A stretch of 64,000 nt of DNA from an uncultured Pelagibacteraceae bacterium. Its GTDB lineage: Bacteria > Pseudomonadota > Alphaproteobacteria > Pelagibacterales > AG-422-B15. A program made the translations under genes and the position numbers. Numbering within the stretch: position 1 is the first letter of the stretch; the number at the start of each line of letters is the position of its first letter. Shown here in pieces: positions 8,035-28,171 of the stretch. The DNA is taken from assembly GCA_902611715.1 (NCBI GenBank), contig CACMAQ010000002.1:714-64713 (forward strand). Reading direction: 5' to 3'. The notes under the pieces are model-generated. The model was not told the DNA's origin. It saw nothing but the letters and a program-made list of their open reading frames with translations, and did no database searches.

Positions 8035-8322
8035 ATGTACCAAAAAATTATGTTATTTATAGTTATATTTCTCGGAATTGTAATTTTAATTGGTACCACG
8101 ATTGTTATTACTACTATTATTGAGCGATCATACAAGATTGATTTTTTTACTTCCACTGATAATTCTGAGAAGGATATAAATATTGAAAAAAAATGTGATC
8201 TTGTGGGTGAAAAAACTAAAGTTATTTCTCTAAGTGAGGACAAATTAGCTATTATTTGTGAGGGTCGTATTGAGGTAATGAATTTATCTAATAATCAAGT
8301 AGAAAAAGTAGTTAACTACTAG
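8035..8322 (+). CDS. Hypothetical membrane-anchored protein (95 aa)
   Basis: ATG at 8035 followed by one strongly hydrophobic helix (LFIVIFLGIVILIGTTIVITTII). No recognisable family. The longer track ORF from 7978 would overlap the rluD start. Confidence 0.4.
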   Translation: MYQKIMLFIVIFLGIVILIGTTIVITTIIERSYKIDFFTSTDNSEKDINIEKKCDLVGEKTKVISLSEDKLAIICEGRIEVMNLSNNQVEKVVNY

Positions 8323-9953: not shown

Positions 9954-9997
9954 AACTAATTTTACCAAAGTTTGTAATTATAGTACAACATAAGCTT

Positions 9998-10876: not shown

Positions 10877-10960
10877 TTAAATCAGACATTTATCTAATTA
10901 ATTATGTAACATAATTTAATTTTTTTTTATGTGGAAGCACTTACATATATATGTTTCAAT

Positions 10961-10966
10961 TATAAT
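10961..10966 (+). promoter_or_regulatory. Candidate -10 hexamer (TATAAT) for proXWV
   Basis: Perfect TATAAT 26 nt upstream of the proX ATG, followed by AGGAG at 10981-10985. The -35 is poor (CTTACA with a 15-nt spacer). Confidence 0.3.
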
Positions 10967-10991
10967 GAAAGATATAAATTAGGAGATTAAA

Positions 10992-12008: not shown

Positions 12009-12024
12009 TTAAAAAAATAATATT

Positions 12025-12048
12025 GCGGACTATAGAAATATAGTCCGC
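12025..12048 (+). promoter_or_regulatory. Intercistronic RNA hairpin between proX and proW
   Basis: GCGGACTATA-GAAA-TATAGTCCGC: perfect 10-bp stem with a GAAA tetraloop, no following T-run, 8 nt before the proW ATG. Confidence 0.55.
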
Positions 12049-12056
12049 ATATCTAT

Positions 12057-12953
12057 ATGAATTTTACCGAATTTTTTATTTCATTTCCTGAAATGAGTAA
12101 GGAGAGTCTTCGCCTATTTAAGAAGTCTCTTGATGGCGCTTACCGAAACTTTTCACGTGAATATGGCGATACAATTGAAGCGGTTTTTGATCCAGTGCTT
12201 TATTTCTTAGTATGGTTTGAAAGAATACTACAAAATTCTCCATGGCCTGTCGTAATAATCGTTTTCTTATTATTGATCTATTATGGAAGTAGAAGCATCG
12301 CTCTAACTATTTCATCTTTAATTGCTTTTTTATTAATTGGATATTTTGGAATGTGGGATGATACGATGTCCACAGTCAGTATTATTGGTGTTTGCACACT
12401 AATGTCTATCGGCCTAGGTATACCAATTGGCATATTAATGTCAGGATCTGATAGGGCGAGAGCCGCAATTACTCCAATTTTAGATGTTATGCAAACGATG
12501 CCAAGTTTTGTGTATCTCATTCCAGTTGTTATGTTATTGGGTATTGGTAAAATTCCTGGTTTACTTGCAGTTATAATCTATGCAATCCCGCCAATAATTC
12601 GACTTACTGATCTTGGTATTAGAGAAGTTAATAAAGAAGTTTTAGAAGCCGCAGATGCATTTGGTGCAAATAGAACTCAAAAATTATTTAGAGTACAGCT
12701 TCCATTAGCTTTACCAACAATTTTCGCTGGTATTAATCAAACAATAATGATGGCACTTGCAATGGTAGTTATTGCTTCAATGATTGGGGTTAAGGGATTG
12801 GGGCAACCAGTCTTAAAAGCCATCACCAATCAATATTTTACAATGGGCCTTCTCAATGGTTTGGCTATTGTAGCTTTGGCGATCATATTTGACAGGGTTT
12901 CTCAGTCATTTGGCAAAAGAATGCAGCAATATAGGGCTGGCGCAAATGAGTGA
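12057..12953 (+). CDS. proW: Glycine betaine ABC transporter permease
   Basis: Multi-TM BPD-type permease positioned between proX and proV. Confidence 0.85.
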   Translation: MNFTEFFISFPEMSKESLRLFKKSLDGAYRNFSREYGDTIEAVFDPVLYFLVWFERILQNSPWPVVIIVFLLLIYYGSRSIALTISSLIAFLLIGYFGMWDDTMSTVSIIGVCTLMSIGLGIPIGILMSGSDRARAAITPILDVMQTMPSFVYLIPVVMLLGIGKIPGLLAVIIYAIPPIIRLTDLGIREVNKEVLEAADAFGANRTQKLFRVQLPLALPTIFAGINQTIMMALAMVVIASMIGVKGLGQPVLKAITNQYFTMGLLNGLAIVALAIIFDRVSQSFGKRMQQYRAGANE

Positions 12954-13971
12954 GATAAAGATTAAGATAGAAAATTTGTATAAAATTTTTGGATCAAGAC
13001 CAAGAGAGTACACAGACATAGTTAGAGATGGTGTTGATAAAGACGAGTTATTATCAAAATATAATCATGTTCTTGGGTTGGATAATATTTCTCTAGATAT
13101 CAAGGAGCATTCAATACAAGTTGTAATGGGATTATCAGGGTCAGGAAAATCTACTTTGATAAGACACATTAATAGATTGATTGAGCCAACCGAGGGAACG
13201 GTCACAGTTGATGGAGAGGATATTACTAAACTTAATAAAATGGATCTTCTAGAGTTTAGAAGAAATAAAACAGGGATGGTTTTTCAACGCTTTGCACTAT
13301 TTCCTCATCAAAATATATTAGACAATGTCCAGTTTGGATTGAGCATAAAAAATCTAGATAAGTCAGACTCTATAGAAAGAGCAATGTACTGGATCGAAAA
13401 AGTTGGTTTAACCGGTTTTGAAAATAAATTCCCAAATCAATTGTCAGGAGGAATGCAGCAAAGAGTAGGTTTAGCTAGGGCGTTAGCTACTGATCCAGAT
13501 ATATTGCTAATGGACGAAGCCTTTAGTGCGCTTGATCCATTAATAAGAACTGATATGCAGGACCAATTACTGGACTTACAAAAGAATTTAAATAAAACAA
13601 TTATGTTCATAACTCATGACCTCGATGAGGCACTAAAATTAGGCGACCGAATAGCTATACTCAATGGCGGAAAACTTGTTCAAGATGGAAATGCAGAGGA
13701 AATTCTTTTAAAACCCGCTGATCAATATGTGGCCAATTTTGTTAAGGATGTTAATCGTATAAAGGTTTTAAAAATCAAGACAATTCTTGACCAAGGAGGT
13801 GAACGAGCAAATTCTAATCCAACTGTAAACGTAAATGATAGTATTGAAAATTGCTTGCCGGCAATACTTGAAAGTCAATCCGGTCTTAACGTAATTGATG
13901 AGAAAAACAATTTTGTTGGCTCAGTATCAAAAAACAAAATTATAGATATTTTGCAAAAATCTAAGGATTAA
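12946..13971 (+). CDS. proV: Glycine betaine ABC transporter ATP-binding protein with C-terminal CBS-like region
   Basis: Walker A GLSGSGKST, signature LSGGMQQRV, Walker B ILLMDEA. Start placed at ATG 12946 (8-nt overlap with proW) rather than the track start at 12889. Confidence 0.9.
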   Translation: MSEIKIKIENLYKIFGSRPREYTDIVRDGVDKDELLSKYNHVLGLDNISLDIKEHSIQVVMGLSGSGKSTLIRHINRLIEPTEGTVTVDGEDITKLNKMDLLEFRRNKTGMVFQRFALFPHQNILDNVQFGLSIKNLDKSDSIERAMYWIEKVGLTGFENKFPNQLSGGMQQRVGLARALATDPDILLMDEAFSALDPLIRTDMQDQLLDLQKNLNKTIMFITHDLDEALKLGDRIAILNGGKLVQDGNAEEILLKPADQYVANFVKDVNRIKVLKIKTILDQGGERANSNPTVNVNDSIENCLPAILESQSGLNVIDEKNNFVGSVSKNKIIDILQKSKD

Positions 13972-13986
13972 TTCTACTAAATTTTT

Positions 13987-16395
13987 TTATTGCCTTAAAT
14001 TTTTACCGGTTTGGTCATAACAAGCATTATCAACAATTGAGGCATTATAAAACTCTCCATTTATTTCAACTTGCAAAACTTCTTTGGATTTTAATAAATC
14101 ATTGTTCAAGTATGCAAAAGCAATACTTTTTTGCACATAGTGGCCGAAGCCTCCAGATGTTACATATCCGATACATACTTCATTCTGCATAACAGCCTCA
14201 TTGCTAGTCACATCTATGTTGTCAGTTTCAATTACCAAGGAAAATAATCTGTGATTGCTATCATCTTTAACTGCAGCGTCTTTACCAATAAAATCTTTAT
14301 CCCAATTTATAAATGCAGAAAGGCCAGTTTCTTTTGGAGTATAGTCAGGTCTAAAATCTAGTGTCCATGCGCCCCAATTTTTTTCTAGTCTCATAGACAT
14401 CAAAGCTCTTCCGCCAAAAGGTTTAATGTTGAATTCTTCTCCTGCATCCTCAATAGCCTCATAAAGCTTGATTTGATAGTGTGGAGCTACATATATTTCA
14501 TATCCCAATTCTCCAGTAAATGACAACCGGTTGACTAATGCAGGAACACCAGCAACAAACATTTGTCTAGAATCTCTAAATTTAAATGACTCATTAGAAA
14601 CATCTTCTCTTACCAATAATTGCAGTAAATTTCTAGACTTTGGGCCAGAAATAGCAAGGCCGTGATAATCATCAGATCTGTTTTTATAAATGACCTCATA
14701 TTGATCTAGATGTTGTTCAAACCATCGTCGATGCATTTCCTGAGCGGCACCAGATCCATAAACCATAAAATGATTTTCACTAATACACGAAACTGTAAGG
14801 TCCCCATATAATTTACCTTTTTTAGATAGCATTGGACTTAGTGCTATGCGTCCAACTTTAGGTATTCTACCTGCCAAAATATAATCCAAAAATTTTCTTG
14901 AGTCTTTTCCCTTAAATTCATGTTTAGAAAAATTAGCAATTTCTGTTACTCCAACGTTTTCTCTTACATTTTTTACTTCATTTGAAACATAGTTATGGGA
15001 TCGAGAGCGCTTGATAGTTGGTTCTTCGTAAGCATCATCAGGATTATCAGCAAACCATAGAACATTTTCGAGTCCAAAGCTGTCACCCATAACTGCTCCC
15101 ATGTTAACGAAGCGATCATATAAAGCTGTAGTTTTTTGTTTCCTTCCTTTTGGCAAAGTCTCATTTGGAAATGTCATAATAAATCTTCGTTCATAATTTT
15201 CAGATGATTTAATTGTTCCATAATGTGGAGATGCATAATCACCAAACCGTGCAACATCCATCGCCCAAACATCTATGGAAGGTTCACCATCAATAATCCA
15301 TTCTGCAATACATTTGCCAACACCTCCTCCTTGACAGAACCCGGCCATAACACCGACTGCTACCCAATAATTTCTCATACCTGGAACTGGTCCAATGAGA
15401 GGATTTCCATCAGGACCAAATGTAAAAGGGCCGTTAACAATATTTTTAATTCCTGCTTTTTCCAAAGCTGGCATTCTCTCAAAACCAATGACTAATCGAT
15501 CTTGAATATTTTCTAATTTTGGTTCCAACAGTTCATGTCCAAAATCTAATGGGGTTCCCTGAACTTTCCAAGGAGTAGACTTATGTTCATATGTGCCAAG
15601 CAACATGCCTTGTCCTTCTTGTCTAAAATAGATATTACCATCAAAATCAGTTCCAACTGGTAGCCTTGTTCCCTTAGGCATCGCTGCTATTTCTGGAATT
15701 GTATCAGTGATTAAATAATGATGCTCCATTGGCTGTACAGGCAAATTTAATCCAGCAAGTTTACTGACCTCTCTCGCCCAAAGTCCTGCAGCATTAATTA
15801 CAATTTCTGTATGAATATTGCCCTTATCAGTAAACACATCCCAGGTTCCATCTTCTCTTTGCTTAGTGTCTTTAACCTCAGTATTTGTGTAATAGTTAGC
15901 GCCATGAACTTTTGCAGATTTTGCAAATGCATATGTGACACCTGATGGATCTACTTCTCCATCGATCGGATCCCACAAAGCTGAAATATATTTATTGGGA
16001 TCGATAAGAGGATTTTTTTTTGCAACCTCCTCTAATGAGATAAACTCTTGATCAAGACCCATATATCTGGCTTTTGTTCTTTCTCTTTTAAGATAATCAG
16101 ACCAAACTTCATTAGAGGCTAAATAAAACCCTCCACTTGGTTTAAAGCCAACTGAATGACCTGAAGTCTCTTCAATTTCCTTGTACAAGTTTATTGTATA
16201 TGCCATCAGTCTGGATATGTTTGGATCTGAAGAAATGACATGAACGTTTCCTGCGGCATGCCATGAGGATCCTGCTGTTAATTCTTTTCGCTCAAGGAGA
16301 ACGCAGTCCTTCACCCCAAACTTTGCTAAATGGAAAAGAATAGAGCAACCTACAACTCCCCCGCCAATAACAACAACTTTAGCATGAGTTTGCAT
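13987..16395 (-). CDS. dmgdh: Dimethylglycine (or sarcosine) dehydrogenase: FAD oxidoreductase fused to a GcvT-like folate-binding domain
   Basis: VVVIGGGVVG dinucleotide fold, SSWHAAG (covalent-FAD His region), C-terminal aminomethyltransferase-like domain. 802 aa. Confidence 0.85.
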   Translation of the reverse strand: MQTHAKVVVIGGGVVGCSILFHLAKFGVKDCVLLERKELTAGSSWHAAGNVHVISSDPNISRLMAYTINLYKEIEETSGHSVGFKPSGGFYLASNEVWSDYLKRERTKARYMGLDQEFISLEEVAKKNPLIDPNKYISALWDPIDGEVDPSGVTYAFAKSAKVHGANYYTNTEVKDTKQREDGTWDVFTDKGNIHTEIVINAAGLWAREVSKLAGLNLPVQPMEHHYLITDTIPEIAAMPKGTRLPVGTDFDGNIYFRQEGQGMLLGTYEHKSTPWKVQGTPLDFGHELLEPKLENIQDRLVIGFERMPALEKAGIKNIVNGPFTFGPDGNPLIGPVPGMRNYWVAVGVMAGFCQGGGVGKCIAEWIIDGEPSIDVWAMDVARFGDYASPHYGTIKSSENYERRFIMTFPNETLPKGRKQKTTALYDRFVNMGAVMGDSFGLENVLWFADNPDDAYEEPTIKRSRSHNYVSNEVKNVRENVGVTEIANFSKHEFKGKDSRKFLDYILAGRIPKVGRIALSPMLSKKGKLYGDLTVSCISENHFMVYGSGAAQEMHRRWFEQHLDQYEVIYKNRSDDYHGLAISGPKSRNLLQLLVREDVSNESFKFRDSRQMFVAGVPALVNRLSFTGELGYEIYVAPHYQIKLYEAIEDAGEEFNIKPFGGRALMSMRLEKNWGAWTLDFRPDYTPKETGLSAFINWDKDFIGKDAAVKDDSNHRLFSLVIETDNIDVTSNEAVMQNEVCIGYVTSGGFGHYVQKSIAFAYLNNDLLKSKEVLQVEINGEFYNASIVDNACYDQTGKNLRQ

Positions 16396-16397
16396 TC

Positions 16398-17438
16398 TTA
16401 AGGTGTGAATTCTTTATTTACCTGCTTAAGAGTTTCGTCTGTTCCATGGTGAAAATGTTTTCTCATGTCCGGCATATATTTCATCGAAATTGGTTTTTTA
16501 CCAACTGCAACTGACATTTCTCTCACGTGATGTGCTTCGGCGCCACAACAAATTCCAATAAAGTTGATATTTTTTTCCATACAGTCTGCAGCAAATTTAG
16601 CCATTTCAAAACGATTACAAAAAAGATTATCCAAGGCTACAGGAAATGCATTATTTCCAGGAATACAATCACATCCATCATCAGAAATATTTAAAAAACC
16701 AGGTTCCTTTTCTGTTGTTCGATAAGGCACTGGCAATCCAGCAACATGGCAAGATACTTTATCTCTTACTTTTTCTAGAAGTTTCATAGTCATATCTGGC
16801 CCTCTATAACAGTTTAAACCAACGACATTTGCACCCAAGTCTTCCATCATTTTACATGCATCTTCAGGTGTATGTCCTTCTCTTGTCTTATCTCCCCTGG
16901 GTATCGCAAAATTTGTAACTGCAATCATGCCTTCATCTTTGATTGCTTTTAGAGCAATTTTCATTTCCTCAGTCCAATTAATTGTCTCAGCGACAATAAA
17001 ATCAACTCCCGCTTCCTTTGCCCACGCCACTTGTTCCTCATACATTTTCTGACATTGAATAAGAGATTGTTTATCATTTGGATCATAAATATTTGTATTT
17101 GCTACATCTCCACAAACCATAAGATCTAAATCTTTATATTCATTAGCTGCATCTTTTGCAATTTGAAGAGCATTTTTCTGTAAAGACTCTAATAAATGCT
17201 CTTTCCCAATTATTCTTAATTTTTCTCTATGGCCATAATAAGTGAAAGCTTGGACAACATCAGATCCTGCTCTTATAAATTCTCTATGTAATTGAGTAAC
17301 AACTTCTGGGTGCTCTAAAACAACTTCAGGAACAAATCCTCCTGCGGATAAGTAACCTCTTCGTTCCATGGCGAATAAATAACCTTCAGCACAAATGATT
17401 GGTCCCTCATTTAATCTCGTTATCAGATCTTTTTTCAT
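16398..17438 (-). CDS. bhmT: Betaine-homocysteine S-methyltransferase (homocysteine S-methyltransferase domain)
   Basis: Pfam02574-like TIM barrel with zinc Cys residues (GLNC ... GICCG). Lies 2 nt upstream of dmgdh. AGGAG 8 nt upstream of the ATG. Confidence 0.8.
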   Translation of the reverse strand: MKKDLITRLNEGPIICAEGYLFAMERRGYLSAGGFVPEVVLEHPEVVTQLHREFIRAGSDVVQAFTYYGHREKLRIIGKEHLLESLQKNALQIAKDAANEYKDLDLMVCGDVANTNIYDPNDKQSLIQCQKMYEEQVAWAKEAGVDFIVAETINWTEEMKIALKAIKDEGMIAVTNFAIPRGDKTREGHTPEDACKMMEDLGANVVGLNCYRGPDMTMKLLEKVRDKVSCHVAGLPVPYRTTEKEPGFLNISDDGCDCIPGNNAFPVALDNLFCNRFEMAKFAADCMEKNINFIGICCGAEAHHVREMSVAVGKKPISMKYMPDMRKHFHHGTDETLKQVNKEFTP

Positions 17439-17549
17439 GAATGCACTCCTAATTTATTCAAACAATAAATAAAAAATTATACCTAATTTAATATTCTGTC
17501 GAATTAAAAAAATGACAAGGCTATTCTTTTTTGGAATGAAAAAGCATTT

Positions 17550-18920
17550 CTAATTTGAAAACAAGCGCTCATCAAGCGGATAAGTAGAAATCGTTTCGTA
17601 ACCATTATTTGTTACGACACCCTGATCCTCAAGCTTGACCATGTGGTCCCCATTAACTTCACCCACCAAAGCCTCGACACAAAGAGTCAGTCCTGGTTCC
17701 AGAACAGCGTCAAAGGCATTTTTAACCAAACGGTCTGGGTAGGCGATCAATGGCCATTCGTCACACATCCCGACACCATGCATAGGTGATGAATACTTGA
17801 GCGCCTGATACTTGTCCTGCAACACGTGCAAAGAATGAGTTAAGTCTTCCATGTGGAGGCCGGGCTTGAGAAGCCTTGTGTTATAGCGAATGTGTTCTAC
17901 TGCCTCTGCATAACTCTCGCGCATATTAGCTGGCGCTAAACTATCTCCAATCCACCAGGTACGACTGAGATCTGCACAAATCCCATAGGGGCCGATCAAA
18001 TCAGTATCAAAAGCAAGAATTTCGTTCTCAGATATGATCCTTGGCCCACATTCTTGAAACCATGGGTTGGTGCGTGGCCCTGAAGTAAGAAGTCTTGTCT
18101 CAATCCACTCGCCACCTCTTTTAATATTTTCTGCATGAAGTACCGCCCAAACATCATCCTCTGTCACACCACCTTTTGGAATTTCTTCGCGTGCAAACTC
18201 CTCCATAACTGCCATCGAGCGTTCACAAGAATAAATAGAACAGCGCATTGCTCGTAATTCGTGCTCGGTTTTGATAGCTCGTGCACGTTCTGTCACTTCC
18301 TCACCGTCACAGTACTCAAGCCCTGCTCGACGGACCGCATCTAAACCTGCAGGCTGAATTTTGTCTATACCGACTTGTGTACAACCTGGAGCGTGAGTGG
18401 CAATTAAGTCTAGTACCTCAGCTGCGAAAGCGTCAGCTGCTGGCCCAATCCGGTCACCACGGGCGAAGTAAAACATGTCCGCACCTGAGCGGCTCTCCCG
18501 AACAAGTGGATTGTATTGGGCGAGGAATGGTGCGTTTTTATAATCCCAGAGTACCATATACCCATCAGCACAAAGCAAGCACGCCCGGAACGGATTGTGG
18601 GTGTTCCACAACTGCATATTTGTCGTGTCAGTTGCATAACGAATATTAAGGGGATCAAACATCAATAAGCCCCCATAACCCCTGGCTACAATTGCATCAG
18701 TCAAGCGTTTGTGTCTGGCTTTGCGCATCTCAGTCAGATCTGGCAATATAAGCCCTGCATCTTGCCATTCAGCATAGGCTAATGCGGTTGGGCCAATTTC
18801 GACACGATCGCCATCATTGATTGTTCCATCGCCCAGATGCACCCCCTGGCTTGGGTCTATCTTATGATTATCGCTGTAGTAATTATTTATATTTGGTAAT
18901 ATTTTACGATTTATCTTCAT
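17550..18920 (-). CDS. dddP: M24-family (creatinase/prolidase fold) protein, DddP-like DMSP lyase
   Basis: 456 aa. D305/D307/D317/H381/E416/E431 and D387 are spaced like the DddP metal ligands and catalytic Asp as I recall them. Much higher G+C than all neighbours. Confidence 0.65.
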   Translation of the reverse strand: MKINRKILPNINNYYSDNHKIDPSQGVHLGDGTINDGDRVEIGPTALAYAEWQDAGLILPDLTEMRKARHKRLTDAIVARGYGGLLMFDPLNIRYATDTTNMQLWNTHNPFRACLLCADGYMVLWDYKNAPFLAQYNPLVRESRSGADMFYFARGDRIGPAADAFAAEVLDLIATHAPGCTQVGIDKIQPAGLDAVRRAGLEYCDGEEVTERARAIKTEHELRAMRCSIYSCERSMAVMEEFAREEIPKGGVTEDDVWAVLHAENIKRGGEWIETRLLTSGPRTNPWFQECGPRIISENEILAFDTDLIGPYGICADLSRTWWIGDSLAPANMRESYAEAVEHIRYNTRLLKPGLHMEDLTHSLHVLQDKYQALKYSSPMHGVGMCDEWPLIAYPDRLVKNAFDAVLEPGLTLCVEALVGEVNGDHMVKLEDQGVVTNNGYETISTYPLDERLFSN

Positions 18921-18928
18921 TTTATTAA

Positions 18929-20071
18929 TTAAGGATTAATTCTATTCAAATAATTTAATCTACCTACGATCTCATCCCTATCAATATAATATCCTTGGAG
19001 GTGTCTATTACCTGAATTGGTATCGTATTCTTTTCTGCCATGCAAGACTCTTCTGTTATTAAAGCTAAAAATATCTCCAGCTTCTAATCTGAAATTGATT
19101 TCAAACATAGGGTCATGTAGCAATGAAAGAAGTTTACGATATGCTTCATAGAAGCTATCCATAACTTCAGGACTGCAATCCATTATTCCCATATAAGCAA
19201 CGCTGAACCGTATATCATTAAAATCATTGTTGTGATCTAGAGTAAATATGGGTTTATGCATTACTCTAATTGTGTTTGCGGTGTAATCTCTATTTACAAA
19301 TTTTACAGGTGTATCAAGAAGAATCTTGAAATATTCAGTAAAATTTTCTTTCATATAGCTTGCAACTTTAAATCCATCTAACGCAACTGATTCACCACCG
19401 GTTGCATCGTTTATTAAACAATGAAGGAACTGGTAGCCAGGAGCAATTTCATAATATGGTAAGTCGATGTGATTTCTTAGAGCTGCAGCTGTATATGCTG
19501 AATTATTTGGATTAGGAATGTCGATTACTTCAAATGGTGTTTTAAAAAAAGTTTCTCTATGATGACTTATATTAGATAGAACATCAAAACCTGACTCTTT
19601 TTCAGTGGGTGCATTTTTTACAATTGAAATGCCCTTATAGTGAAGTTGTTCTAACCATTTTTTTATTCCTTCATCTCCACTAATAATTTCTTGATAATCT
19701 ATTTGAATATCTTCAAAATTTGATTGCATACTATTATCCCACAAAAAATAAGGTGAACTATATTTTTTCTTACTTTTCATCGTGTAACAGTTATGTCGAA
19801 GCCATTCGACGTCATAGTGACTTATATGGCCTCCTTCACTCCACTCAATCTCCAACTGCCCTTTATCATTTATTGTAAACGCTTTTGGGTAAATATTTTC
19901 TGAAACATTTAGCAAGTTAAAGGTTCTCTCCCTTGCAGTAGGGTGAACTTCTGATGGACAATTATCCCTTAACCATAAAAAATTAAATTTACTCTGCTCA
20001 CCATCACTCCAATCAATTAGAATCGATTTACCATTCTTTTTTAATGATGATATTGATGGATTCTCATTCAT
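18929..20071 (-). CDS. Gamma-butyrobetaine dioxygenase-like Fe(II)/2-oxoglutarate oxygenase
   Basis: N-terminal DUF971-like domain (IDWSDGEQSKFNFLWLRDNC), HxD facial triad (NHID), distal His (RRVLHGR). 380 aa. Confidence 0.7.
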   Translation of the reverse strand: MNENPSISSLKKNGKSILIDWSDGEQSKFNFLWLRDNCPSEVHPTARERTFNLLNVSENIYPKAFTINDKGQLEIEWSEGGHISHYDVEWLRHNCYTMKSKKKYSSPYFLWDNSMQSNFEDIQIDYQEIISGDEGIKKWLEQLHYKGISIVKNAPTEKESGFDVLSNISHHRETFFKTPFEVIDIPNPNNSAYTAAALRNHIDLPYYEIAPGYQFLHCLINDATGGESVALDGFKVASYMKENFTEYFKILLDTPVKFVNRDYTANTIRVMHKPIFTLDHNNDFNDIRFSVAYMGIMDCSPEVMDSFYEAYRKLLSLLHDPMFEINFRLEAGDIFSFNNRRVLHGRKEYDTNSGNRHLQGYYIDRDEIVGRLNYLNRINP

Positions 20072-20074
20072 ATC

Positions 20075-21049
20075 TTATTTAAATGTATTATATTTTCTGT
20101 CCCAATTCGGAAACTTACCTTTTTGATTCTTATTTAAAGTTTTCATAATTTCAATCAAAAACAAATCTCTTTGTTTTTCTAATTCTTTAATATTGAATTT
20201 TCCTGCTTGTTTTTTTGTTCCTGAAACCATTGCTTTTTTAAGTTTGTTGGTTAATTCAGGTGCTTTCAATTTTGTCCAAGGGAGTTTTAGTGCAGGACCA
20301 AATTGTTCCAGCATGTGTTTCATGCCAGTTTCTCCACCAGCTAAATGGAACGTTAAACAAACCCCCATAAAAGCCCATCTCAATCCAGGACCATAAACAA
20401 TTGCATCATCAACTTCATCCGTTGATGCTACCCCGTCATTTATAATATGCAAGGCTTCACGCCATAACGCTTCTTGTAGTCTGTCTGAAATATATCCTTC
20501 TATTTCTTTTTGAACAATAAGTGGTCGCATTCCAATATGTTCATATAATTTTTTTAATTTTTTAACACTTATATGACTAGTTTTCTTGCCAGCTACAATC
20601 TCTACTAGAGGTAATAAGTATACAGGATTAAATGGATGACCTATTAAAACTCTCTCAGGAAACTTGCAAGCCGATTGAATTTTTGATGGTAATAAGCCTG
20701 ACGAACTAGATGCGATTATAACTCTCTTATCAACTAAATTATCAATTTGTTTGAGTATATTTTTTTTAATCTTTTCGTTTTCTGGTGCATTCTCTTGAAC
20801 AAAAGTTGTATCCTTCAATGCACTAGGTAATTTTGAATAGACCTTAAGATTTCTTAATGAGGCATTTCTATTCAAACCGATTTTCTTTAAGCTTTTAAAA
20901 GCAGTTCGAACATTTATTTTTAGCTGCTCACGTGAAACACTATTAGGGTCATATGCTTTTACAGTATAACCTTTAGCTAGAAATCTTGCAGCCCAGCCTG
21001 CGCCAATTACTCCAGTACCCACAATAGTGATGACTTTATTTTGTTTCAA
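20075..21049 (-). CDS. 3-hydroxyacyl-CoA dehydrogenase family protein, L-carnitine dehydrogenase-like
   Basis: Rossmann [26 protein letters not shown] plus a 3HCDH C-terminal domain. ATGA overlap with the upstream BKACE gene. No fused thioesterase domain (324 aa). Confidence 0.65.
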
Positions 21050-21930
21050 ACTTTAAGCCCAAGTTTTTTTCTGGCTTCATCTGGCCCCATCACATTTGCA
21101 CCAAGATTATTAATTATTGTCGTCGCTTTTTCAACAAGTTGACCGTTTGAAGCGTATACACCTTTTTCAAGATATAGGTTGTCTTCAAGACCAACTCTAA
21201 CATTGCCCCCCAAAAGAACCGCTTGAGCAACCATCGGCATTTGATGAACCCCAATTCCAAAAGCTGCCCAGTTACTGCCCGATGGTAGCATGTCTACCAT
21301 GTTTTTCATTGAACTGGTATTAGCCGGTGCCCCATAGGGAATGCCAAGACAAATTTGAAATAGAGGAGGGCTGTCAAGCAATCCCTCATCGTACATTTGA
21401 TTTGCAAACCACATATGCCCTGTATCAAAAACTTCTAACTCCGGTTTTACGCCTAATTCTTGTATTCTTTTTGCACCAATTCTTAATTGTTCAGGAGTAC
21501 TAACATAAATCATGTTGCCATCACCAAAATTAAGAGTTCCACAATCAAGGGAACATATATCTGGTAATATTTCTTCAACGTGACTTAGTCGTTCAATCGC
21601 ATTAACAAAATCAGTATTAGGTCCGAACTTTAATAGATCATCCTCAGGTCCAATTTCTATATCACCGCCCATACCACTGGTAAGATTTATTATGACATTT
21701 GTGCCACTATCTTTTATGCGGCTCACAACCTCTTTATAAAGCTCATCGTCTCTTGATCCCTTTCCTGTATTTAAATCTCTGACATGGATATGCGCTATAG
21801 CAGCTCCAGCTGACGCTGCTTCAATTGCTGCATTAGCAATTTGCTCTGGCGTCACCGGTATGTTTGGATGTTTGTTGACTGTATCTCCTGATCCAGTAAC
21901 AGCACATGAAATAATGACGTCTCTGTTCAT
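21046..21930 (-). CDS. BKACE-family (DUF849) beta-keto acid cleavage enzyme, dehydrocarnitine cleavage candidate
   Basis: [12 protein letters not shown] ... AIAHIHVRD motif pattern typical of 3-keto-5-aminohexanoate cleavage enzyme relatives. 294 aa. Confidence 0.75.
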
Positions 21931-21968
21931 ATTCCTTTACTAGTGAAAAAAAATTAATTTACAATTAC

Positions 21969-21982
21969 CATACTATAGTATG
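21969..21982. promoter_or_regulatory. Perfect 14-bp palindrome in a divergent promoter region (operator and/or overlapping -10 elements)
   Basis: CATACTATAGTATG is its own reverse complement. It lies in the 67-bp gap between the BKACE start (21930) and the aldehyde dehydrogenase start (21998) and contains TATAGT on both strands. Confidence 0.3.
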
Positions 21983-21997
21983 TAATCATCATCTGAA

Positions 21998-23422
21998 ATG
22001 CAAAATCTACAAAAATTTTATATTGATGGTCAATGGGTAGCGCCACAATCTAGTAAAAAAATGCCTGTCGTAAATCCAGCCACAGAGGAAGTTATCGGTG
22101 AAGTCATATTAGGTAATGAAGAAGATGTAAATATCGCAGTAAAAGCCGCTAAAAATGCATTTATGAGTTTTTCAAAAACTTCTAAAGAAGAGAGAATGAA
22201 TATTTTGAAAAATATACGAAAAATTTCAGAAGAAAGATTTGATGACTTAGCTGATGCTATGACAATGGAGATGGGTGCACCAAGAAAAATGTCACGTGAA
22301 GCCCAAGCTGATGCAGCTATAGGTCATTTGGATGGTTTTATTAGTGCATTAGAAAAACATGAAGAAAAAATTGAGTTATCCAATACAGATATTTTATTAA
22401 AAGAACCAATTGGAGTATGTGGTCTAATCACTCCATGGAATTGGCCAATAAACCAAATCACATTAAAAGTTTTGCCAGTCATTGCAACCGGCTGTACTTG
22501 TATTTTAAAACCATCAGAACATACGCCATTATCAGCAATGGTTTATGCCGAAATACTAGATAAAGCTGGTGTCCCTGCAGGTGTTTTCAATTTAGTTCAT
22601 GGTGATGGCGAGGGTGTGGGCATAGCCATGTCAAGACATCCAGATATTGAGATGATGTCGTTTACCGGCTCTAAAAGAGGCGGAAAGTCGGTTACAATAG
22701 AGTCAGCTGAAACTGTCAAAAAAGTTACACTTGAGCTTGGAGGCAAGTCACCAAATTTAGTTTTTGCAGATTGTGATCTTGAGGAAAAAGTAACCGCATC
22801 TGTAAATGAATGTATGTTTAACACCGGACAATCATGTGACGCTCCTACCAGATTACTGGTTGAAAAAAAATGCTACGATGAAGTCGTTACAATTGCAAAA
22901 AAGGCGGCTGAAGAAATAAAAGTTGGAGACCCACAAGAGGATGGAGATCATCTAGGACCTTTATTTGATAAAATCCAATTTGATAGAGTCCAAAACATGA
23001 TTCAGGTAGGAATAGATGAAGGTGCCGAGCTGCTTGTTGGTGGACTGGGTAAACCTGAGGGGTTAGAAAAAGGTTGGTTTACTAAACCAACTATATTCAT
23101 AAATGTTAATAACAGCATGCGAGTAGCTCAAGAAGAGATTTTTGGCCCCGTACTTGTAATAATTCCATTTGAAGATGAAAAAGAAGCTATTGAAATAGCT
23201 AATGACACACCTTACGGACTTGCCGCATATTTACAAACAGGCGACACCGAAAGGGCAGAAAGAGTTTCAAGACAACTTAGAGCTGGCGGTGTACATGTAA
23301 ACGGAGGCGGTTATAACTATGGCTCTCCTTTTGGCGGTTATAAAGAGTCTGGAAACGGCCGCGAAGGCGGTGATATGGGGCTTGAAGACTATCTTGAAAC
23401 AAAAGCATTACATATTGCTTAA
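21998..23422 (+). CDS. NAD(P)-dependent aldehyde dehydrogenase (betaine aldehyde or trimethylaminobutyraldehyde dehydrogenase candidate)
   Basis: ELGGKSP and catalytic FNTGQSC motifs, ITPWNWP. 474 aa. The substrate is inferred from context only. Confidence 0.9.
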   Translation: MQNLQKFYIDGQWVAPQSSKKMPVVNPATEEVIGEVILGNEEDVNIAVKAAKNAFMSFSKTSKEERMNILKNIRKISEERFDDLADAMTMEMGAPRKMSREAQADAAIGHLDGFISALEKHEEKIELSNTDILLKEPIGVCGLITPWNWPINQITLKVLPVIATGCTCILKPSEHTPLSAMVYAEILDKAGVPAGVFNLVHGDGEGVGIAMSRHPDIEMMSFTGSKRGGKSVTIESAETVKKVTLELGGKSPNLVFADCDLEEKVTASVNECMFNTGQSCDAPTRLLVEKKCYDEVVTIAKKAAEEIKVGDPQEDGDHLGPLFDKIQFDRVQNMIQVGIDEGAELLVGGLGKPEGLEKGWFTKPTIFINVNNSMRVAQEEIFGPVLVIIPFEDEKEAIEIANDTPYGLAAYLQTGDTERAERVSRQLRAGGVHVNGGGYNYGSPFGGYKESGNGREGGDMGLEDYLETKALHIA

Positions 23423-23447
23423 AATTTAATTCAAAGCAGTAAAATTT

Positions 23448-25388
23448 ATGGAAAAATTACTGTGGCAAGCCTCCGAAAAAAGAAGAAAACAATCTAATTT
23501 AATAAAATACCATCGTTATCTTAAAAAAAACTATTCGATAAATTTTGATTATGAATATGACTCCTTATTCAACTGGAGTATAGCAAAGCCTAACTTATTT
23601 TGGACAAGTCTTTTGAGTTATTTAGATATAAACTATAGCGGCAATGAAAACCCTGCTATTAGTGAAAGTGAAAATATTTATGACAAGAAATTTTTTCCAA
23701 ACTTAAAGCTTAGCTATAGTGAAAATATCATTAATAATTTAAATTCTATTCCTATACTCTATGTAAATGAAATTGGATTTAAAAAATATTACAGCAAAGA
23801 AGAAGTTATTCATAAAGTAAATTTAGTTGCTAAATATTTGAAATCTATTGGTATTAAAAAGGGCGATAGAGTTGTAGGCATTGTAACTAATAATGCAGAA
23901 ACATTGATTTCATTTCTTGCAGTAAATTCAATTGGTGCGGTATGGTCTTCTTGTTCACCGGATTTTGGTGAACAGGCTATATTAGATAGGTTTAGTCAAA
24001 TAGAGCCCAAAATTTTATTTTATTCCAGCAACTATATGTATGGAGGAAAGAAATTTAAAATTTTAGAAAAAATAAAAAATGTTGAGAGTAAGCTTAATAC
24101 ATTGGAAGTGTCCATATGCATTGATTATTCTCAAAAAGACAAAAGTTTTATCGATGAAAAATTAAATTTTTTTGAAGAAAACAATAGAGAATTGAGTGCG
24201 CTCTCTTTTGAAAGATGTCAGTTTAATGACCCAATGTATATATTGTATTCCAGCGGTACAACTGGAAAACCAAAATGTATTGTACATAATACTGGAGGTC
24301 CATTAATCCAACATTTAAAAGAACAGCAACTTCACTGTGAAATTTGTGAAGACGATAAGCTTTTCTATTTTACTACTTGTGGATGGATGATGTGGAATTG
24401 GCTTATTTCTGGTCTTGCTTCTAAGGCAACAGTTGTTCTTTATGAGGGGTCTCCTTTTTTTCCACATCAGGACTCACTTTTTAAAGTGGCGGAAGAAGAG
24501 GAAATTACTTGTTTTGGTACAAGCGCAAAGTTTATTGATGCGCTAAGAAATAGCCAAATTCAAATTTCAAATAAATATAAACTATCAAAATTAAAAACAA
24601 TTTTAAGCACTGGATCAACACTAGTTAGTGAGAGTTTTAATTATGTTTATAGCAATATTAAGCAAGACGTACATTTAGCCTCTATTAGTGGCGGTACTGA
24701 TATTGTTTCATGTTTTGTTGGAGGAGATCCAACCGGTGCAGTATTTTCAGGAGAAATTCAATGTGAATGTTTAGGAGTCGATGTTGATATATTTAATGAA
24801 GATGGGGTTAGCACTCAGCAAAAAGGAGAACTCGTTTGCAAATCAGCAATTCCTTCAATGCCAATTGGGTTCTGGGATGATGTTAATAAAGAAAAATATA
24901 TAAAATCATATTTTTCAAAATTTTCCAATATTTGGACACAAGGTGACTATGCAATCAAAACAGCAAATAAGGGTTTCATAATCTTTGGGCGCTCCGACTC
25001 AACTCTCAATCCTGGAGGCATTAGAATTGGTACTGCAGAAATATATAGGTCTGTTGAAAAACTAGAAGATATCAATGAATCGATTGTGGTTGGGCAAGAA
25101 TGGAATGATGATGTCAGAATTATTTTATTTATAACCCTTAAAGCCAAAAGTCATCTAAATGATAAATTAGTTGCTGATATCAAGGAAAATATTAAAAATT
25201 CAACCTCCATCAGACATGTGCCCGCAAAGATTATTCAAGTTACTGATATTCCAAGAACTCGGAGCGGTAAGATAGCTGAATTGACTGTAAGAGATATTAT
25301 AAACGGTAAAAAAGTTAAAAATTTGGAGGCTCTTGCAAATCCAGAATGTCTTACAGAATATGAAAATATTGAAGAATTAGACTATTAA
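23448..25388 (+). CDS. Acetoacetyl-CoA synthetase (AMP-forming)
   Basis: 646 aa, AMP-binding YSSGTTGKPK, and a long N-terminal region typical of acetoacetate-CoA ligases (NWSIAKPNLFW). Confidence 0.8.
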   Translation: MEKLLWQASEKRRKQSNLIKYHRYLKKNYSINFDYEYDSLFNWSIAKPNLFWTSLLSYLDINYSGNENPAISESENIYDKKFFPNLKLSYSENIINNLNSIPILYVNEIGFKKYYSKEEVIHKVNLVAKYLKSIGIKKGDRVVGIVTNNAETLISFLAVNSIGAVWSSCSPDFGEQAILDRFSQIEPKILFYSSNYMYGGKKFKILEKIKNVESKLNTLEVSICIDYSQKDKSFIDEKLNFFEENNRELSALSFERCQFNDPMYILYSSGTTGKPKCIVHNTGGPLIQHLKEQQLHCEICEDDKLFYFTTCGWMMWNWLISGLASKATVVLYEGSPFFPHQDSLFKVAEEEEITCFGTSAKFIDALRNSQIQISNKYKLSKLKTILSTGSTLVSESFNYVYSNIKQDVHLASISGGTDIVSCFVGGDPTGAVFSGEIQCECLGVDVDIFNEDGVSTQQKGELVCKSAIPSMPIGFWDDVNKEKYIKSYFSKFSNIWTQGDYAIKTANKGFIIFGRSDSTLNPGGIRIGTAEIYRSVEKLEDINESIVVGQEWNDDVRIILFITLKAKSHLNDKLVADIKENIKNSTSIRHVPAKIIQVTDIPRTRSGKIAELTVRDIINGKKVKNLEALANPECLTEYENIEELDY

Positions 25389-25404
25389 TCATATATTTTC
25401 AAAT

Positions 25405-26499
25405 ATGAAGCTAGATTTTGACTCAAAAGAATTAAGAGTATTTGATAAAGAGGAAATTTTTAAAATACATCCCTTGTGGATACGGGAACGATCAACTGAA
25501 AAAGGGGAAGTTGATCAAAATTCTTTTCAAAGATTATATGATCCTGAAAAGATTGAGCCAGATTTGCAAATAAAGAATGCTCAGCTACTAGCAGACAACA
25601 AAATGCATGTAGAATTTTCTGATAACCATAGTGCAACTTATTGTTTAGATAAATTAATAACAGAAATTACAAGATCAAATGTCCTACCACCAAAGATTTA
25701 CTGGGATAAAAATGATGCTGAGTTAAAAAAATTTAGTTTTGCCTATGGAGCAAACGAAAGTCAGCAATTGTTAGAAATTTTAAAATTTTATCATCAGTAT
25801 GGTTACGTTGTAGTCGAAGATTTGCCAGCTAAGGATGGAGAAGTTATAAAATTTGCTGAAAAAATTGGATTTATTCGAGAAACTAATTTTGGCAAGCTAT
25901 TTAATGTGAGGTCACAAAAACAACCTAATGACTTGGCTTATACATCCATAGAATTAGAGTCGCATACTGATAATCCCTACAGAAAACCAGTACCATCAAT
26001 TCAATTTTTATTTTGTATTGAAAACAGTTGTAAAGGCGGAGACTCCACAGTTGTAGATGGTTTCAAAGTTGCAGAGGATCTAAAAAAAGAAAATCCACAA
26101 GCTTTTAATATTCTAGTAAACACTCTAATAAATTATAAATTTGAAGATAATGATGCTATTTTAGAAAAAACTGGAAAAATTATAAAATTAAGTGCTAGAG
26201 GAGAACTCAAACAAATAAAATATAGTAATAGATTAGACTTTGTATTTTACGATGAGCCAAAGGTTTTGGAAGAATTTTATGCTGCTAAAAGAGTTATGCA
26301 TCAAATGATCAATTCAGATAAATATATATTACAATTTCATTTAGAGCCTGGTAACTTATTAATTATGAATAATTACAGAACTTTACATGGAAGACGAAGC
26401 TACAATACATCTGAAGGAAGTCGGTGGCTTCAAGGGCTGTATATTGACCATGACTCTGCCGAAAGTAAATATAAACTCCTCTCCAAGGAAGTAGAATGA
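25405..26499 (+). CDS. Second BBOX/TauD-like Fe(II)/2-oxoglutarate dioxygenase, TmpA-like candidate
   Basis: HxD triad (SHTD) and distal His (YRTLHGR). 364 aa. ATGA overlap with the downstream HD-domain gene. Confidence 0.6.
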   Translation: MKLDFDSKELRVFDKEEIFKIHPLWIRERSTEKGEVDQNSFQRLYDPEKIEPDLQIKNAQLLADNKMHVEFSDNHSATYCLDKLITEITRSNVLPPKIYWDKNDAELKKFSFAYGANESQQLLEILKFYHQYGYVVVEDLPAKDGEVIKFAEKIGFIRETNFGKLFNVRSQKQPNDLAYTSIELESHTDNPYRKPVPSIQFLFCIENSCKGGDSTVVDGFKVAEDLKKENPQAFNILVNTLINYKFEDNDAILEKTGKIIKLSARGELKQIKYSNRLDFVFYDEPKVLEEFYAAKRVMHQMINSDKYILQFHLEPGNLLIMNNYRTLHGRRSYNTSEGSRWLQGLYIDHDSAESKYKLLSKEVE

Positions 26500-27047
26500 A
26501 GACAGTCAAGTTTACCGAAATGAAAAAAGGATCAAAAGAAGATTATGAACTTTTGGCTGAATATGAAAAAAACTACGTAAATGAACTTCCTGATCGAATA
26601 TTAGAATCATTAAAAAACTTAGATAATTCAGTGGACGGGTACCAAGTAACAAGACTTGAGCATTCTTTGCAATCAGCAACCAGAGCTGAAAAAGATGGGG
26701 CAGATGAAGAAATGATTGTTGCTACATTGTTGCATGATATAGGAGACAGTCTTGCTCCATACAATCACAGTCAGCTCATAGCTGCTGTTTTAAGACCGTA
26801 TGTTTCTGAAAAGGTTCATTGGATTATGTTGCATCATGGGCTTTTTCAAGAATATTATTATGCTCATCATTTAGGTAAAGATAGAAATTCACGAGATAAA
26901 TTTAAGGATCACCCATACTATCAAGATGCGGTCGACTTTTGTGAAAAGTGGGATCAAAAATCTTTTGATCCTAATTATGAGTCCTTCCCGTTAGATCATT
27001 TTGAACCAATGGTGAGAAGATTATTTTCTAAAGAGCCAAATTTTTAA
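26496..27047 (+). CDS. Small HD-domain protein, PhnZ/TmpB-like mixed-valent diiron oxygenase candidate
   Basis: 183 aa. H56 (LEHSLQ) and H80-D81 (LLHDIGD) lie 24 residues apart, followed by several His (H108, H113/114, H124/125) and D153. Translationally coupled to the dioxygenase. Confidence 0.6.
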   Translation: MKTVKFTEMKKGSKEDYELLAEYEKNYVNELPDRILESLKNLDNSVDGYQVTRLEHSLQSATRAEKDGADEEMIVATLLHDIGDSLAPYNHSQLIAAVLRPYVSEKVHWIMLHHGLFQEYYYAHHLGKDRNSRDKFKDHPYYQDAVDFCEKWDQKSFDPNYESFPLDHFEPMVRRLFSKEPNF

Positions 27048-28171
27048 GCTATCTTTTTCACAATTACATTTCCAACTGAATAACCAGCTCCAAATGAACA
27101 TATAATTGCTAAATCATTTTTATTTAATGATTTATTGTATTTATGAAAGGCAATAATTGAACCAGCTGAACTTGTATTTGCATATTCATCCAAAACTACA
27201 GGTGCTAACTCTTTTGGGGCATCTTTTCCCAATACATACTTTGAAATTAAAACGTTCATATTCTCGTTGGCTTGATGAAGATACATGCCTTTGAGATCAT
27301 TGGCCGATAGGTTATTTTCTTCTAAATGAGATTTAATCAAGTTAGAAACTTCTGGAACAACTTCCTTAAATACTTTTCGTCCATTTTGATGAAATAATTT
27401 ATCTGACTGACCAACGCCATCAGGCGACGAATTATTTAAAAAGCCATAATTATTTCTTATATTGTTTGAAAACTTAGTTAATAATCTAGTGCCAATTATT
27501 TCATAGGAGTTTTCTCTAATATTTTCTTCATTAAGACGTTCTAAAATAACTGCAGTCGCAACGTCTCCAAAAATAAAATGACAGTCTCGATCTCTGAAAT
27601 TTAAATGTCCGGTACAAATTTCAGGATTAATCATGATAGCAGACTTTATACTTCCAGACTTTACCATGTCGAAGATAGTTTGAATTCCAAAAGTTGCTGA
27701 TGAACACGCAACATTCATATCAAAAGCAAAACCTTTGATACCCAAAGCATTTTGTATTTCAATTGCAATTGCTGGATAGGCACGCTCAAGATTTGAACAA
27801 GCTACAATTACTGCATCAATATCATCTACATCTATATTTGAGTTTTTAATCGCATCTTTAGCTGCAATGACCCCCATTTCAGCTAAATTAGATAATTCTT
27901 CTTCTGACCTTTCTCTCAATTTAGGCCTCATAAAAGAAGTATCTAGAATTCCTGTTTTATTTTGTACATATCTTGATTTAACGCCTGATGCTTTTTCTAT
28001 GAATTCAGCGCTGGATTTTTCCAAAGGTTGGGTTTTTCCATTTTTAATATCTTCTGAATTTATTTCATTAAATTCATCAACATATTTATTGAATGATTGT
28101 ACCAATTCCTCATTAGAGATTTTTTCCTTAGGAGTGTAAAGGCCGGTCCCAGAAATTTGAACTTTATACAT
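27044..28171 (-). CDS. 3-oxoacyl-ACP synthase III-like condensing enzyme
   Basis: Thiolase fold with active-site Cys (NVACSSATF) and the C-terminal His/Asn region (YLHQAN ... GAGY). 375 aa. Confidence 0.8.
   Translation of the reverse strand: MYKVQISGTGLYTPKEKISNEELVQSFNKYVDEFNEINSEDIKNGKTQPLEKSSAEFIEKASGVKSRYVQNKTGILDTSFMRPKLRERSEEELSNLAEMGVIAAKDAIKNSNIDVDDIDAVIVACSNLERAYPAIAIEIQNALGIKGFAFDMNVACSSATFGIQTIFDMVKSGSIKSAIMINPEICTGHLNFRDRDCHFIFGDVATAVILERLNEENIRENSYEIIGTRLLTKFSNNIRNNYGFLNNSSPDGVGQSDKLFHQNGRKVFKEVVPEVSNLIKSHLEENNLSANDLKGMYLHQANENMNVLISKYVLGKDAPKELAPVVLDEYANTSSAGSIIAFHKYNKSLNKNDLAIICSFGAGYSVGNVIVKKIA

Follow-up and report, generated by a model that had tools for sequence, protein, structure and literature searches.

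A probable gamma-butyrobetaine and carnitine catabolic module without a dedicated betainyl-CoA thioesterase in a family of SAR11 bacteria

We analysed a 64,000-nucleotide stretch of DNA (the window) from an uncultured SAR11 (Pelagibacterales) bacterium, in which five genes form a divergent cluster: a BBOX1-like dioxygenase, a short-form dehydrogenase resembling carnitine dehydrogenase (CDH) and a BKACE cleavage enzyme on one strand, and an aldehyde dehydrogenase (ALDH) and an acetoacetate-CoA ligase on the other. The locus is most likely a stripped-down variant of the known Pseudomonas carnitine pathway, with the final enzyme missing and an acetoacetate-activating enzyme adjacent. Taken as a whole, its sequence reads with fair confidence as a quaternary-amine catabolic module leading from gamma-butyrobetaine and carnitine to glycine betaine. 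The module is a core feature of one SAR11 family, and the absence of a dedicated betainyl-CoA thioesterase is real, not an artefact of assembly.

Gene cluster and its conservation in SAR11

The host assembly (897 kb in 53 contigs, GC ~33%) is 60% complete and belongs to a SAR11 family of 59 species in four genera (f1), separate from the large family with Pelagibacter-type genomes (f2). Open reading frames were assigned to families by Pfam and NCBIfam profile searches against curated cut-offs. All five genes claimed in an earlier reading of this DNA, made from the sequence only, were recovered at exactly the same coordinates and strands and in the families it had named. On the minus strand, BKACE (21046-21930, 294 aa) overlaps CDH (20075-21049, 324 aa) by 4 bp, and BBOX1 (18929-20071, 380 aa) begins 3 bp past the CDH stop. 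By sequence inspection, a 67-bp divergent intergenic region (21931-21997), common to both operons, separates these genes from the plus-strand ALDH (21998-23422, 474 aa) and ligase (23448-25388, 646 aa).

BKACE was found in 43 of the 59 family genomes, including all 12 of high quality and 18 of the 19 with a completeness of 85% or more. Its sequences are 86-100% identical within the family and 99-100% identical between species of the window's genus (g1). Gene order was compared across three genera, represented by the 100%-complete congener G051, by G002 (genus g2) and by G010 (genus g3). All three share an invariant core in which the ligase diverges from BKACE-CDH-BBOX1, which converges on an ABC transporter. 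This conserved BKACE-CDH-BBOX1 order, together with the orthology of BKACE and CDH as judged by operon context, supports the earlier proposal of a carnitine pathway.

The BKACE groups with carnitine-operon enzymes

The window BKACE matches PF05853 with 326 bits (cut-off 24.8) over positions 5-292, and its residues H47, H49, E249 and D250 are invariant in an alignment with nine operon-defined homologues; from the structure of Kce, we take these four to be the zinc ligands. Its closest homologues outside SAR11, 68-71% identical, come from Burkholderia, Caballeronia, Paraburkholderia and Pseudomonas, at loci with the gene order caiX (binding protein)-cdhC-cdhA-cdhB (thioesterase) and a GlxA/CdhR-type regulator beside them. 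It is therefore with the CdhC of caiX-cdhCAB operons that the homology check against Pseudomonas cdhCAB, suggested by the sequence-only reading, aligns this enzyme. The triad of BKACE, CDH and thioesterase, the third either free-standing or fused, recurs in Paracoccus, Agrobacterium, Citricoccus (Actinomycetota) and Bacillus cereus. In Pseudomonas canadensis (L101), the gene after caiX-cdhC-cdhA-cdhB encodes a dioxygenase that exceeds the GBBH equivalog cut-off (446 bits against 415), so that this operon provides a bona fide precedent for a dioxygenase co-transcribed with CDH and BKACE.

A wider comparison covered 80 loci from species-representative genomes, with BKACE proteins 58-71% identical to the window's. 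SAR11 metagenome sequences of 85% identity or more filled the results of the homologue search (metagenome-derived protein catalogues contain more than 8,000 close homologues), and distant references were drawn instead from plasmid records and GTDB contigs. In the resulting tree, the window BKACE falls inside the clade in which a CDH homologue adjoins BKACE in 65 of the 80 loci. The earlier reading had pointed to lysine-fermentation or other non-carnitine subfamilies as the grouping that would speak against it; BKACE and the dehydrogenase group instead with carnitine-operon enzymes, and the lysine-fermentation enzyme Kce (2Y7D) is distant, scoring 130 bits in a comparison with the PDB, as against 341 bits for 3C6C. 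NCBIfam holds no model for the carnitine subgroup of BKACE, and on its Kce model the CdhC of P. canadensis and the window protein give the same score pattern (248 and 249 bits). Clade and operon context support the assignment of the window BKACE as a putative dehydrocarnitine cleavage enzyme of the CdhC group, which corresponds to ASMC group G5 of Bastard et al. (2014), and conversion of gamma-butyrobetaine via carnitine and 3-dehydrocarnitine to betainyl-CoA and acetoacetate is likewise supported, by homology, as the best reading of the locus. A variant arrangement is seen in an uncultured alphaproteobacterium (L147:183-1945), where two tandem BKACE genes (products 65% and 60% identical to the window's) precede CDH, with no thioesterase within the contig.

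Dehydrogenase and dioxygenase

CDH has a 3-hydroxyacyl-CoA-dehydrogenase fold, and its best model is that of L-carnitine dehydrogenase, NF005471, at 372 bits, under the cut-off of 414; the next unrelated model reaches 230. On the same model, the CDH of a genomic island in Pelagibacter (described below), likewise under the cut-off, scores 355 bits and P. canadensis CdhA 663. Sixty invariant columns, including a C-terminal block, are common to the window protein and operon-encoded CdhA proteins of four phyla. The earlier description of CDH as a short, 324-aa form with no fused thioesterase proved correct: its match to NF005716, the fused dehydrogenase-thioesterase model of 495 positions, is confined to 4-313, and the chain terminates in a 12-residue tail, without a C-terminal PF13279 domain. 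It is most likely, to judge by these similarities, a short-form enzyme resembling L-carnitine dehydrogenase, which would oxidize L-carnitine to 3-dehydrocarnitine.

BBOX1 carries the Pfam domains TauD and GBBH-like_N and is best matched by TIGR02409 (312 bits, cut-off 414.75), ahead of the TmpA (268) and TMLD (206) models. Its identity is 58-60% with the BBOX of the Pelagibacter island and 35-37% with the GBBH encoded at the end of the Pseudomonas cdh operon. Its HIDLPY motif, the distal His of RVLHGR and the Arg of RHLQGYY align with human BBOX1, and equivalents of N191 and Y194 are kept; at the position aligned with human Asn292 it has Ser, where TmpA has Asn. The aligned residues are presumably the HxD...H Fe(II) ligands, the 2-oxoglutarate-binding Arg and the substrate-binding positions, and we take Asn292 of the human enzyme to be a carboxylate ligand. 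BBOX1 is a probable Fe(II)/2-oxoglutarate-dependent gamma-butyrobetaine hydroxylase, predicted to form L-carnitine.

Absence of a dedicated thioesterase

Among the 65 comparison loci in which CDH adjoins BKACE, 57 (88%) have a CdhB-type thioesterase within ~2.1 kb. The eight exceptions in this locus-level scan include Paraglaciecola arctica, a Microbulbifer and several metagenome-assembled genomes (MAGs), some of them marine, so that, at the level of the locus, clusters without a thioesterase are not unique to SAR11.

No hotdog thioesterase is encoded in the window cluster. We searched with three queries, the CdhB of Caballeronia, the closer CdhB of Pelagibacter and the C-terminal part of the NF005716 profile. 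This profile scores free-standing CdhB proteins at 60-138 bits, and both reference CdhB proteins and the C-terminal domains of long dehydrogenases are PF13279 members at 91-109 bits. As the host assembly is 60% complete, the absence was also tested in more complete relatives, where it held: no CdhB-type match was obtained at E<=10 in the host genome or in six relatives 90-100% complete (G051, 100%; G056, 99%; G010, 98%; G002, 96%; G040, 94%; G054, 90%), each genome having been searched with one or more of the three queries. As a positive control, the Caballeronia CdhB query matched three of three Pelagibacter genomes that carry the island, with E values of 1e-16 to 1e-19. The claim that no separate betainyl-CoA thioesterase is present, first made for the cluster, therefore extends to whole genomes in the complete relatives.

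The search for hotdog proteins in the rest of the genome, also proposed in the sequence-only reading, returned generic types and no CdhB type. Near-complete relatives have six or seven such proteins (six in the 100%-complete G051) and the host assembly has two. They comprise two of the YbgC/FadM type (one beside hslU, one beside ispH), three of the PaaI type and one of the YciA type; the YbgC/FadM-type proteins score 39-51 bits on PF13279, against 91-109 for CdhB. One PaaI-type gene is divergent from a thiolase gene, and its copy in the host genome lies at L001:1299-1736. Release of glycine betaine is probably due to a generic hotdog thioesterase, to spontaneous hydrolysis or to both; betaine esters are unusually labile owing to the adjacent quaternary nitrogen. 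CdhB was probably lost during genome streamlining. The BKACE tree gives no direction for this change: the clade of the window's family has a support of 0.999, and its sister relation to a clade of Pelagibacteraceae and marine single-amplified genomes (SAGs) has 0.43, so that neither loss nor gain of the thioesterase is claimed from the tree.

Acetoacetate recycling

The ligase passes two full-length models, NF002937 (833 bits, cut-off 639) and TIGR01217 (735 bits, cut-off 521), as an AMP-forming acetoacetate-CoA ligase. The gene is single-copy, and wherever it was found together with BKACE (18 family genomes) the two share a contig, at a distance of ~3 kb or less in 17 of the 18; in the other 80 loci, an acetoacetate-CoA ligase occurs within 8 kb of BKACE only once. 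Class I CoA-transferases (PF01144; SCOT/AtoDA) were absent from the family genomes searched, which discounts them as a route for acetoacetate or betainyl-CoA and leaves the ligase as the only visible route of acetoacetate activation. A thiolase that could complete the loop is present in the host genome. The earlier suggestion that the ligase recaptures the acetoacetate released by BKACE thus gains from its position and from the missing CoA-transferases, and loses in that this enzyme does not belong to the module exclusively; recycling of acetoacetate by this enzyme is plausible as a reasonable functional coupling, short of proof of a dedicated enzyme. Within genus g1, BKACE is 88-100% identical, but one type of ligase is 96-98% and a second 64-65% identical to the window's, which indicates that the two neighbours differ in evolutionary history or rate.

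Proposed pathway and alternatives

From homology and gene context, we infer the following sequence of steps. An OpuAC-type ABC transporter would import gamma-butyrobetaine, L-carnitine or both; BBOX1 would hydroxylate gamma-butyrobetaine to L-carnitine, and the short-form dehydrogenase would oxidize carnitine to 3-dehydrocarnitine. The CdhC-type BKACE would then convert 3-dehydrocarnitine and acetyl-CoA to betainyl-CoA and acetoacetate. With ATP and CoA, the divergent ligase would turn acetoacetate into acetoacetyl-CoA, which a thiolase encoded elsewhere would split into two acetyl-CoA, returning the co-substrate with a net gain of one. Betainyl-CoA would be hydrolysed without CdhB, by a generic hotdog thioesterase and/or spontaneously, and BHMT-like and DMGDH-like enzymes would demethylate the resulting glycine betaine.

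Several observations weigh against this scheme. No candidate thioesterase has a genomic link to the module, none of the generic hotdog genes lying near it, and spontaneous hydrolysis of betainyl-CoA is argued by analogy with the lability of betaine esters. Of 300 Pelagibacterales genomes, 183 encode the ligase, with all ten sampled genera represented, those without BKACE included, which rules it out as a module-dedicated gene (the tally takes in G114 and G314, flagged as unpublished; no claim depends on them), and in one family genome (G008) it lies 14.5 kb from BKACE. BBOX1 resembles TmpA and human BBOX1 to about the same degree (177 and 170 bits), and both CDH and BBOX1 fall below their equivalog cut-offs, so the identity of the substrate is not secured by sequence. 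These sub-cut-off scores, the Ser in place of Asn292 and a second, uncharacterised hydroxylase/HD pair in the locus would all suit a triad acting on some other trimethylammonium or polar 3-hydroxy acid made by BBOX1, whose CoA product would not be betainyl-CoA and for which no such thioesterase would be expected. We consider this improbable, because the BKACE sits inside the clade of operon-defined CdhC proteins at high identity, CDH retains the motifs common to operon-encoded CdhA, and the Pelagibacter homologues (BKACE 60%, CDH 51%, BBOX 58-60% identical) accompany a CdhB-type thioesterase. It is more doubtful still that CDH and BKACE run in reverse, making carnitine from glycine betaine, in which case a thioesterase would be counter-productive and its absence fitting. 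Boysen et al. (2022) observed a fully labelled carnitine isotopologue from labelled glycine betaine in ocean communities and suggested such a reversal (PMC9321204). However, the co-transcribed BBOX1 makes carnitine irreversibly, as befits gamma-butyrobetaine catabolism, no enzyme for the conversion of betaine to betainyl-CoA is evident, the ligase would drain the acetoacetate that the reverse reaction needs, and betaine-demethylating genes follow on the BKACE strand; we give this reading very little credence.

Loss of the thioesterase from view through an assembly gap deserves even less: although the host genome lacks 40% of its sequence and shows two hotdog proteins where complete relatives show six or seven, the six relatives 90-100% complete also have no CdhB-type match, and the working control rules this cause out. 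A more substantial alternative, albeit an unlikely one, is that a lineage-specific family III (CaiB/Frc-type) CoA-transferase passes the CoA of betainyl-CoA to acetate, acetoacetate or succinate, conserving the thioester and making a thioesterase unnecessary. CaiB acts on trimethylammonium acyl-CoAs, and exactly one PF02515 protein is present in each near-complete family genome and in the host genome. Its orthologues are 65-97% identical within the family, whereas the other SAR11 family has paralogues of at most 36% identity, in 27 of 116 genomes, and it scores similarly on the formyl-CoA transferase (130 bits) and L-carnitine CoA-transferase (124 bits) models. Yet it reaches none of the equivalog cut-offs; shared ancestry confounds its co-occurrence with the thioesterase-less module; and acetoacetate as acceptor would make the conserved ATP-dependent ligase redundant. 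In all three genera the gene sits in a housekeeping block, recG-mfd-CoA-transferase-yajQ, with no conserved link to quaternary amines, so that we set its genomic context aside as uninformative. The host copy lies at G000:C4:36884-38014 (L165:5885-7018); a BetA-type choline dehydrogenase (PRK02106, 734 bits, cut-off 605) is found 1.5-2 kb away from the gene in the host genome and in G002. The HD-domain protein of the second hydroxylase pair was also considered as an obligatory substitute for the thioesterase and rejected: G010 (98% complete) has BKACE, CDH, BBOX and ligase and no HD gene, and elsewhere among marine genomes an orthologue of this protein is found alongside a CdhB-type thioesterase. 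We see only a small chance that any thioester-sparing route, through a CaiB-family CoA-transferase or through the hydroxylase/HD-oxygenase pair, has replaced hydrolytic release, and we favour a generic hotdog enzyme or spontaneous hydrolysis over CoA transfer.

Neighbouring genes and regulation

The frame of five genes originally drawn around the module holds for its members and is too narrow on both sides. The operon of ALDH and the ligase extends further, to a TmpA-like dioxygenase (25405-26499, plus strand; 348 bits on the TmpA model, cut-off 400), 16 bp beyond the ligase, and an HD-domain protein with weak PhnZ/TmpB matches (26496-27047, plus strand), which overlaps the TmpA-like gene by 4 bp. 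Convergent to the HD gene is a PRK07515-type KAS III gene (27044-28171; 599 bits, cut-off 304), which holds this position in genera g1 and g2. On the other side, the BKACE strand continues, by profile search, into DddP, a dimethylsulfoniopropionate lyase (17550-18920), a BHMT-like methyltransferase (16398-17438) and a DMGDH-like dehydrogenase (13987-16395), all on the minus strand. Beyond these lie the plus-strand OpuAC-type ABC transporter (10992-13971; binding protein, permease and ATPase; PF04069 178 bits, ProW and ProV models) and, again by profile search, an EamA transporter (9998-10876) and a GMC choline-dehydrogenase-like gene (8319-9968). Of the three genera, only that of the window has the DddP/BHMT/DMGDH genes placed between BBOX1 and the transporter; in g2 and g3 (L075, L074) BBOX1 and the transporter are immediate neighbours in convergent orientation. 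The transporter is a probable importer of the module's substrates.

ALDH belongs to PF00171 (532 bits) and passes no NCBIfam equivalog (437 bits on the betaine-aldehyde dehydrogenase model, cut-off 669); its best PDB matches are uncharacterised aldehyde dehydrogenases, followed by aminoaldehyde and betaine-aldehyde dehydrogenases. Betaine aldehyde and 4-trimethylaminobutyraldehyde are candidate substrates on this evidence. The gene is missing from the cluster in G002, and in G010 it lies beside an Fe-dependent alcohol dehydrogenase gene (L074:11866-13065, between ALDH and BKACE). This alcohol-to-aldehyde-to-acid pair recalls choline oxidation by GbsB/GbsA and hints, by analogy, that ALDH may act on an aldehyde derived from an amino alcohol.

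Of 19 family genomes, 17 have the HD gene; G010 does not, and its module locus has no TmpA-like gene either. Orthologues of the HD protein also occur within ~2.3 kb of BKACE elsewhere (L089:6919-7488, L090:6919-7461, L120:6942-7475 and L117:232-771), with 62% full-length identity in three marine alphaproteobacterial SAGs, where the gene directly adjoins thioesterase-BKACE-CDH, and 55% in a Comamonadaceae MAG; the stretches retrieved contain no TmpA-like partner. The HD family may thus be tied to carnitine and butyrobetaine metabolism rather than to phosphonates. An HD domain-containing protein near cdhB in Caballeronia was considered as a relative of the window protein and proved unrelated.

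A perfect palindrome, CATACTATAGTATG, lies at 21969-21982 inside the 67-bp divergent gap. In genus g2 the corresponding place (L075:13478-13496) has only an imperfect palindrome, around TATAGTA, and the element may be a -10 element and not a conserved operator. A scan of the locus for promoters and terminators returned sites no more numerous than in shuffled sequence. No ORF within 8319-28171 encodes a regulator, whereas the reference cdh loci have one, of the CdhR (GlxA/AraC) type.

Comparison with known systems

The Pseudomonas carnitine operon caiX-cdhCAB was reportedly described by Wargo & Hogan in 2009. Fitness data for P. putida PP_0301-0303 are cited in a preprint (bioRxiv 10.1101/2021.12.09.472016). 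Set against caiX-cdhCAB of Caballeronia sp. M1242 (L076) and P. canadensis, the window module has the same three chemical steps, with a BKACE 66-71% and a short-form CDH 46-50% identical, and both systems have a betaine-type binding protein or transporter adjacent; the P. canadensis operon, in addition, closes with a GBBH gene. The differences are that the SAR11 family has no CdhB match in the genomes searched and the window no CdhR/GlxA regulator, that SAR11 pairs an acetoacetate-CoA ligase divergently with BKACE, and that its CDH and BBOX1 remain below the cut-offs.

Closer in phylogeny is the genomic island of Arctic Pelagibacter (SAR11 Ia.1), reported in mBio in 2025 to carry CDH, BKACE, a class II aldolase, an acyl-CoA thioesterase, two BBOX, CHDH and ALDH (PMC12421898). 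Among the genomes of genus g6 (family f2) that were sampled, 90 of 231 carry it, in the order choline dehydrogenase, TauD-type oxygenase, SMR pump, CdhB-type thioesterase, class II aldolase, BKACE, CDH, SDR, ABC transporter, BBOX, GDPD, glyoxalase and ALDH. The two systems belong to the same bacterial order and share the enzyme trio beside an OpuAC-type transporter, and in both ALDH and GMC choline dehydrogenase genes lie close by. The island is accessory, however, whereas the window module is core in its family, and the island encodes a class II aldolase and, at 91 bits on PF13279, a CdhB-type thioesterase, with no ligase adjacent, whereas the window's family has the reverse: the ligase and no thioesterase. 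Island proteins are 51-62% identical to those of the window (BKACE 60-62%, CDH 51%, BBOX 58-60%), and the window BKACE is closer to Burkholderia CdhC than to the island BKACE.

In the arrangement typical of Sinorhizobium, Paracoccus and Agrobacterium, BKACE (56-58% identical to the window's) is paired with a carnitine dehydrogenase, as in the window, but the long dehydrogenase (~485 aa), a type reportedly characterised by Bazire et al. in 2019, has a PF13279 thioesterase fused to it that the window CDH lacks. There, gamma-butyrobetaine enters by a CoA-dependent, beta-oxidation-like route with no dioxygenase. Carnitine metabolism genes have been reported in offshore SAR11 genera (PMC12636525). 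In the literature searched, we found no description of a family-wide and genome-wide absence of CdhB in SAR11, of the reciprocal arrangement of ligase and thioesterase in two SAR11 families, of missing class I CoA-transferases or of the lineage-specific CoA-transferase.

Discussion

Annotation pipelines leave the genes of this module unnamed, calling BKACE a 3-keto-5-aminohexanoate cleavage protein and leaving CDH and BBOX below cut-off, so that gene surveys of the ocean probably undercount carnitine catabolism. Seawater contains measurable amounts of the osmolytes carnitine and gamma-butyrobetaine, and its surface bacterioplankton is dominated by SAR11. If the module is a core trait of a whole SAR11 family, that family would routinely obtain glycine betaine, methyl groups and acetyl-CoA from these compounds. 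CdhB, present at 88% of comparable loci, would be dispensable in a streamlined genome, which raises the question of how betainyl-CoA is turned over. Should a thioester-sparing route prove true, aerobic carnitine catabolism would end, in some of the most abundant ocean bacteria, with a step that has not been described.

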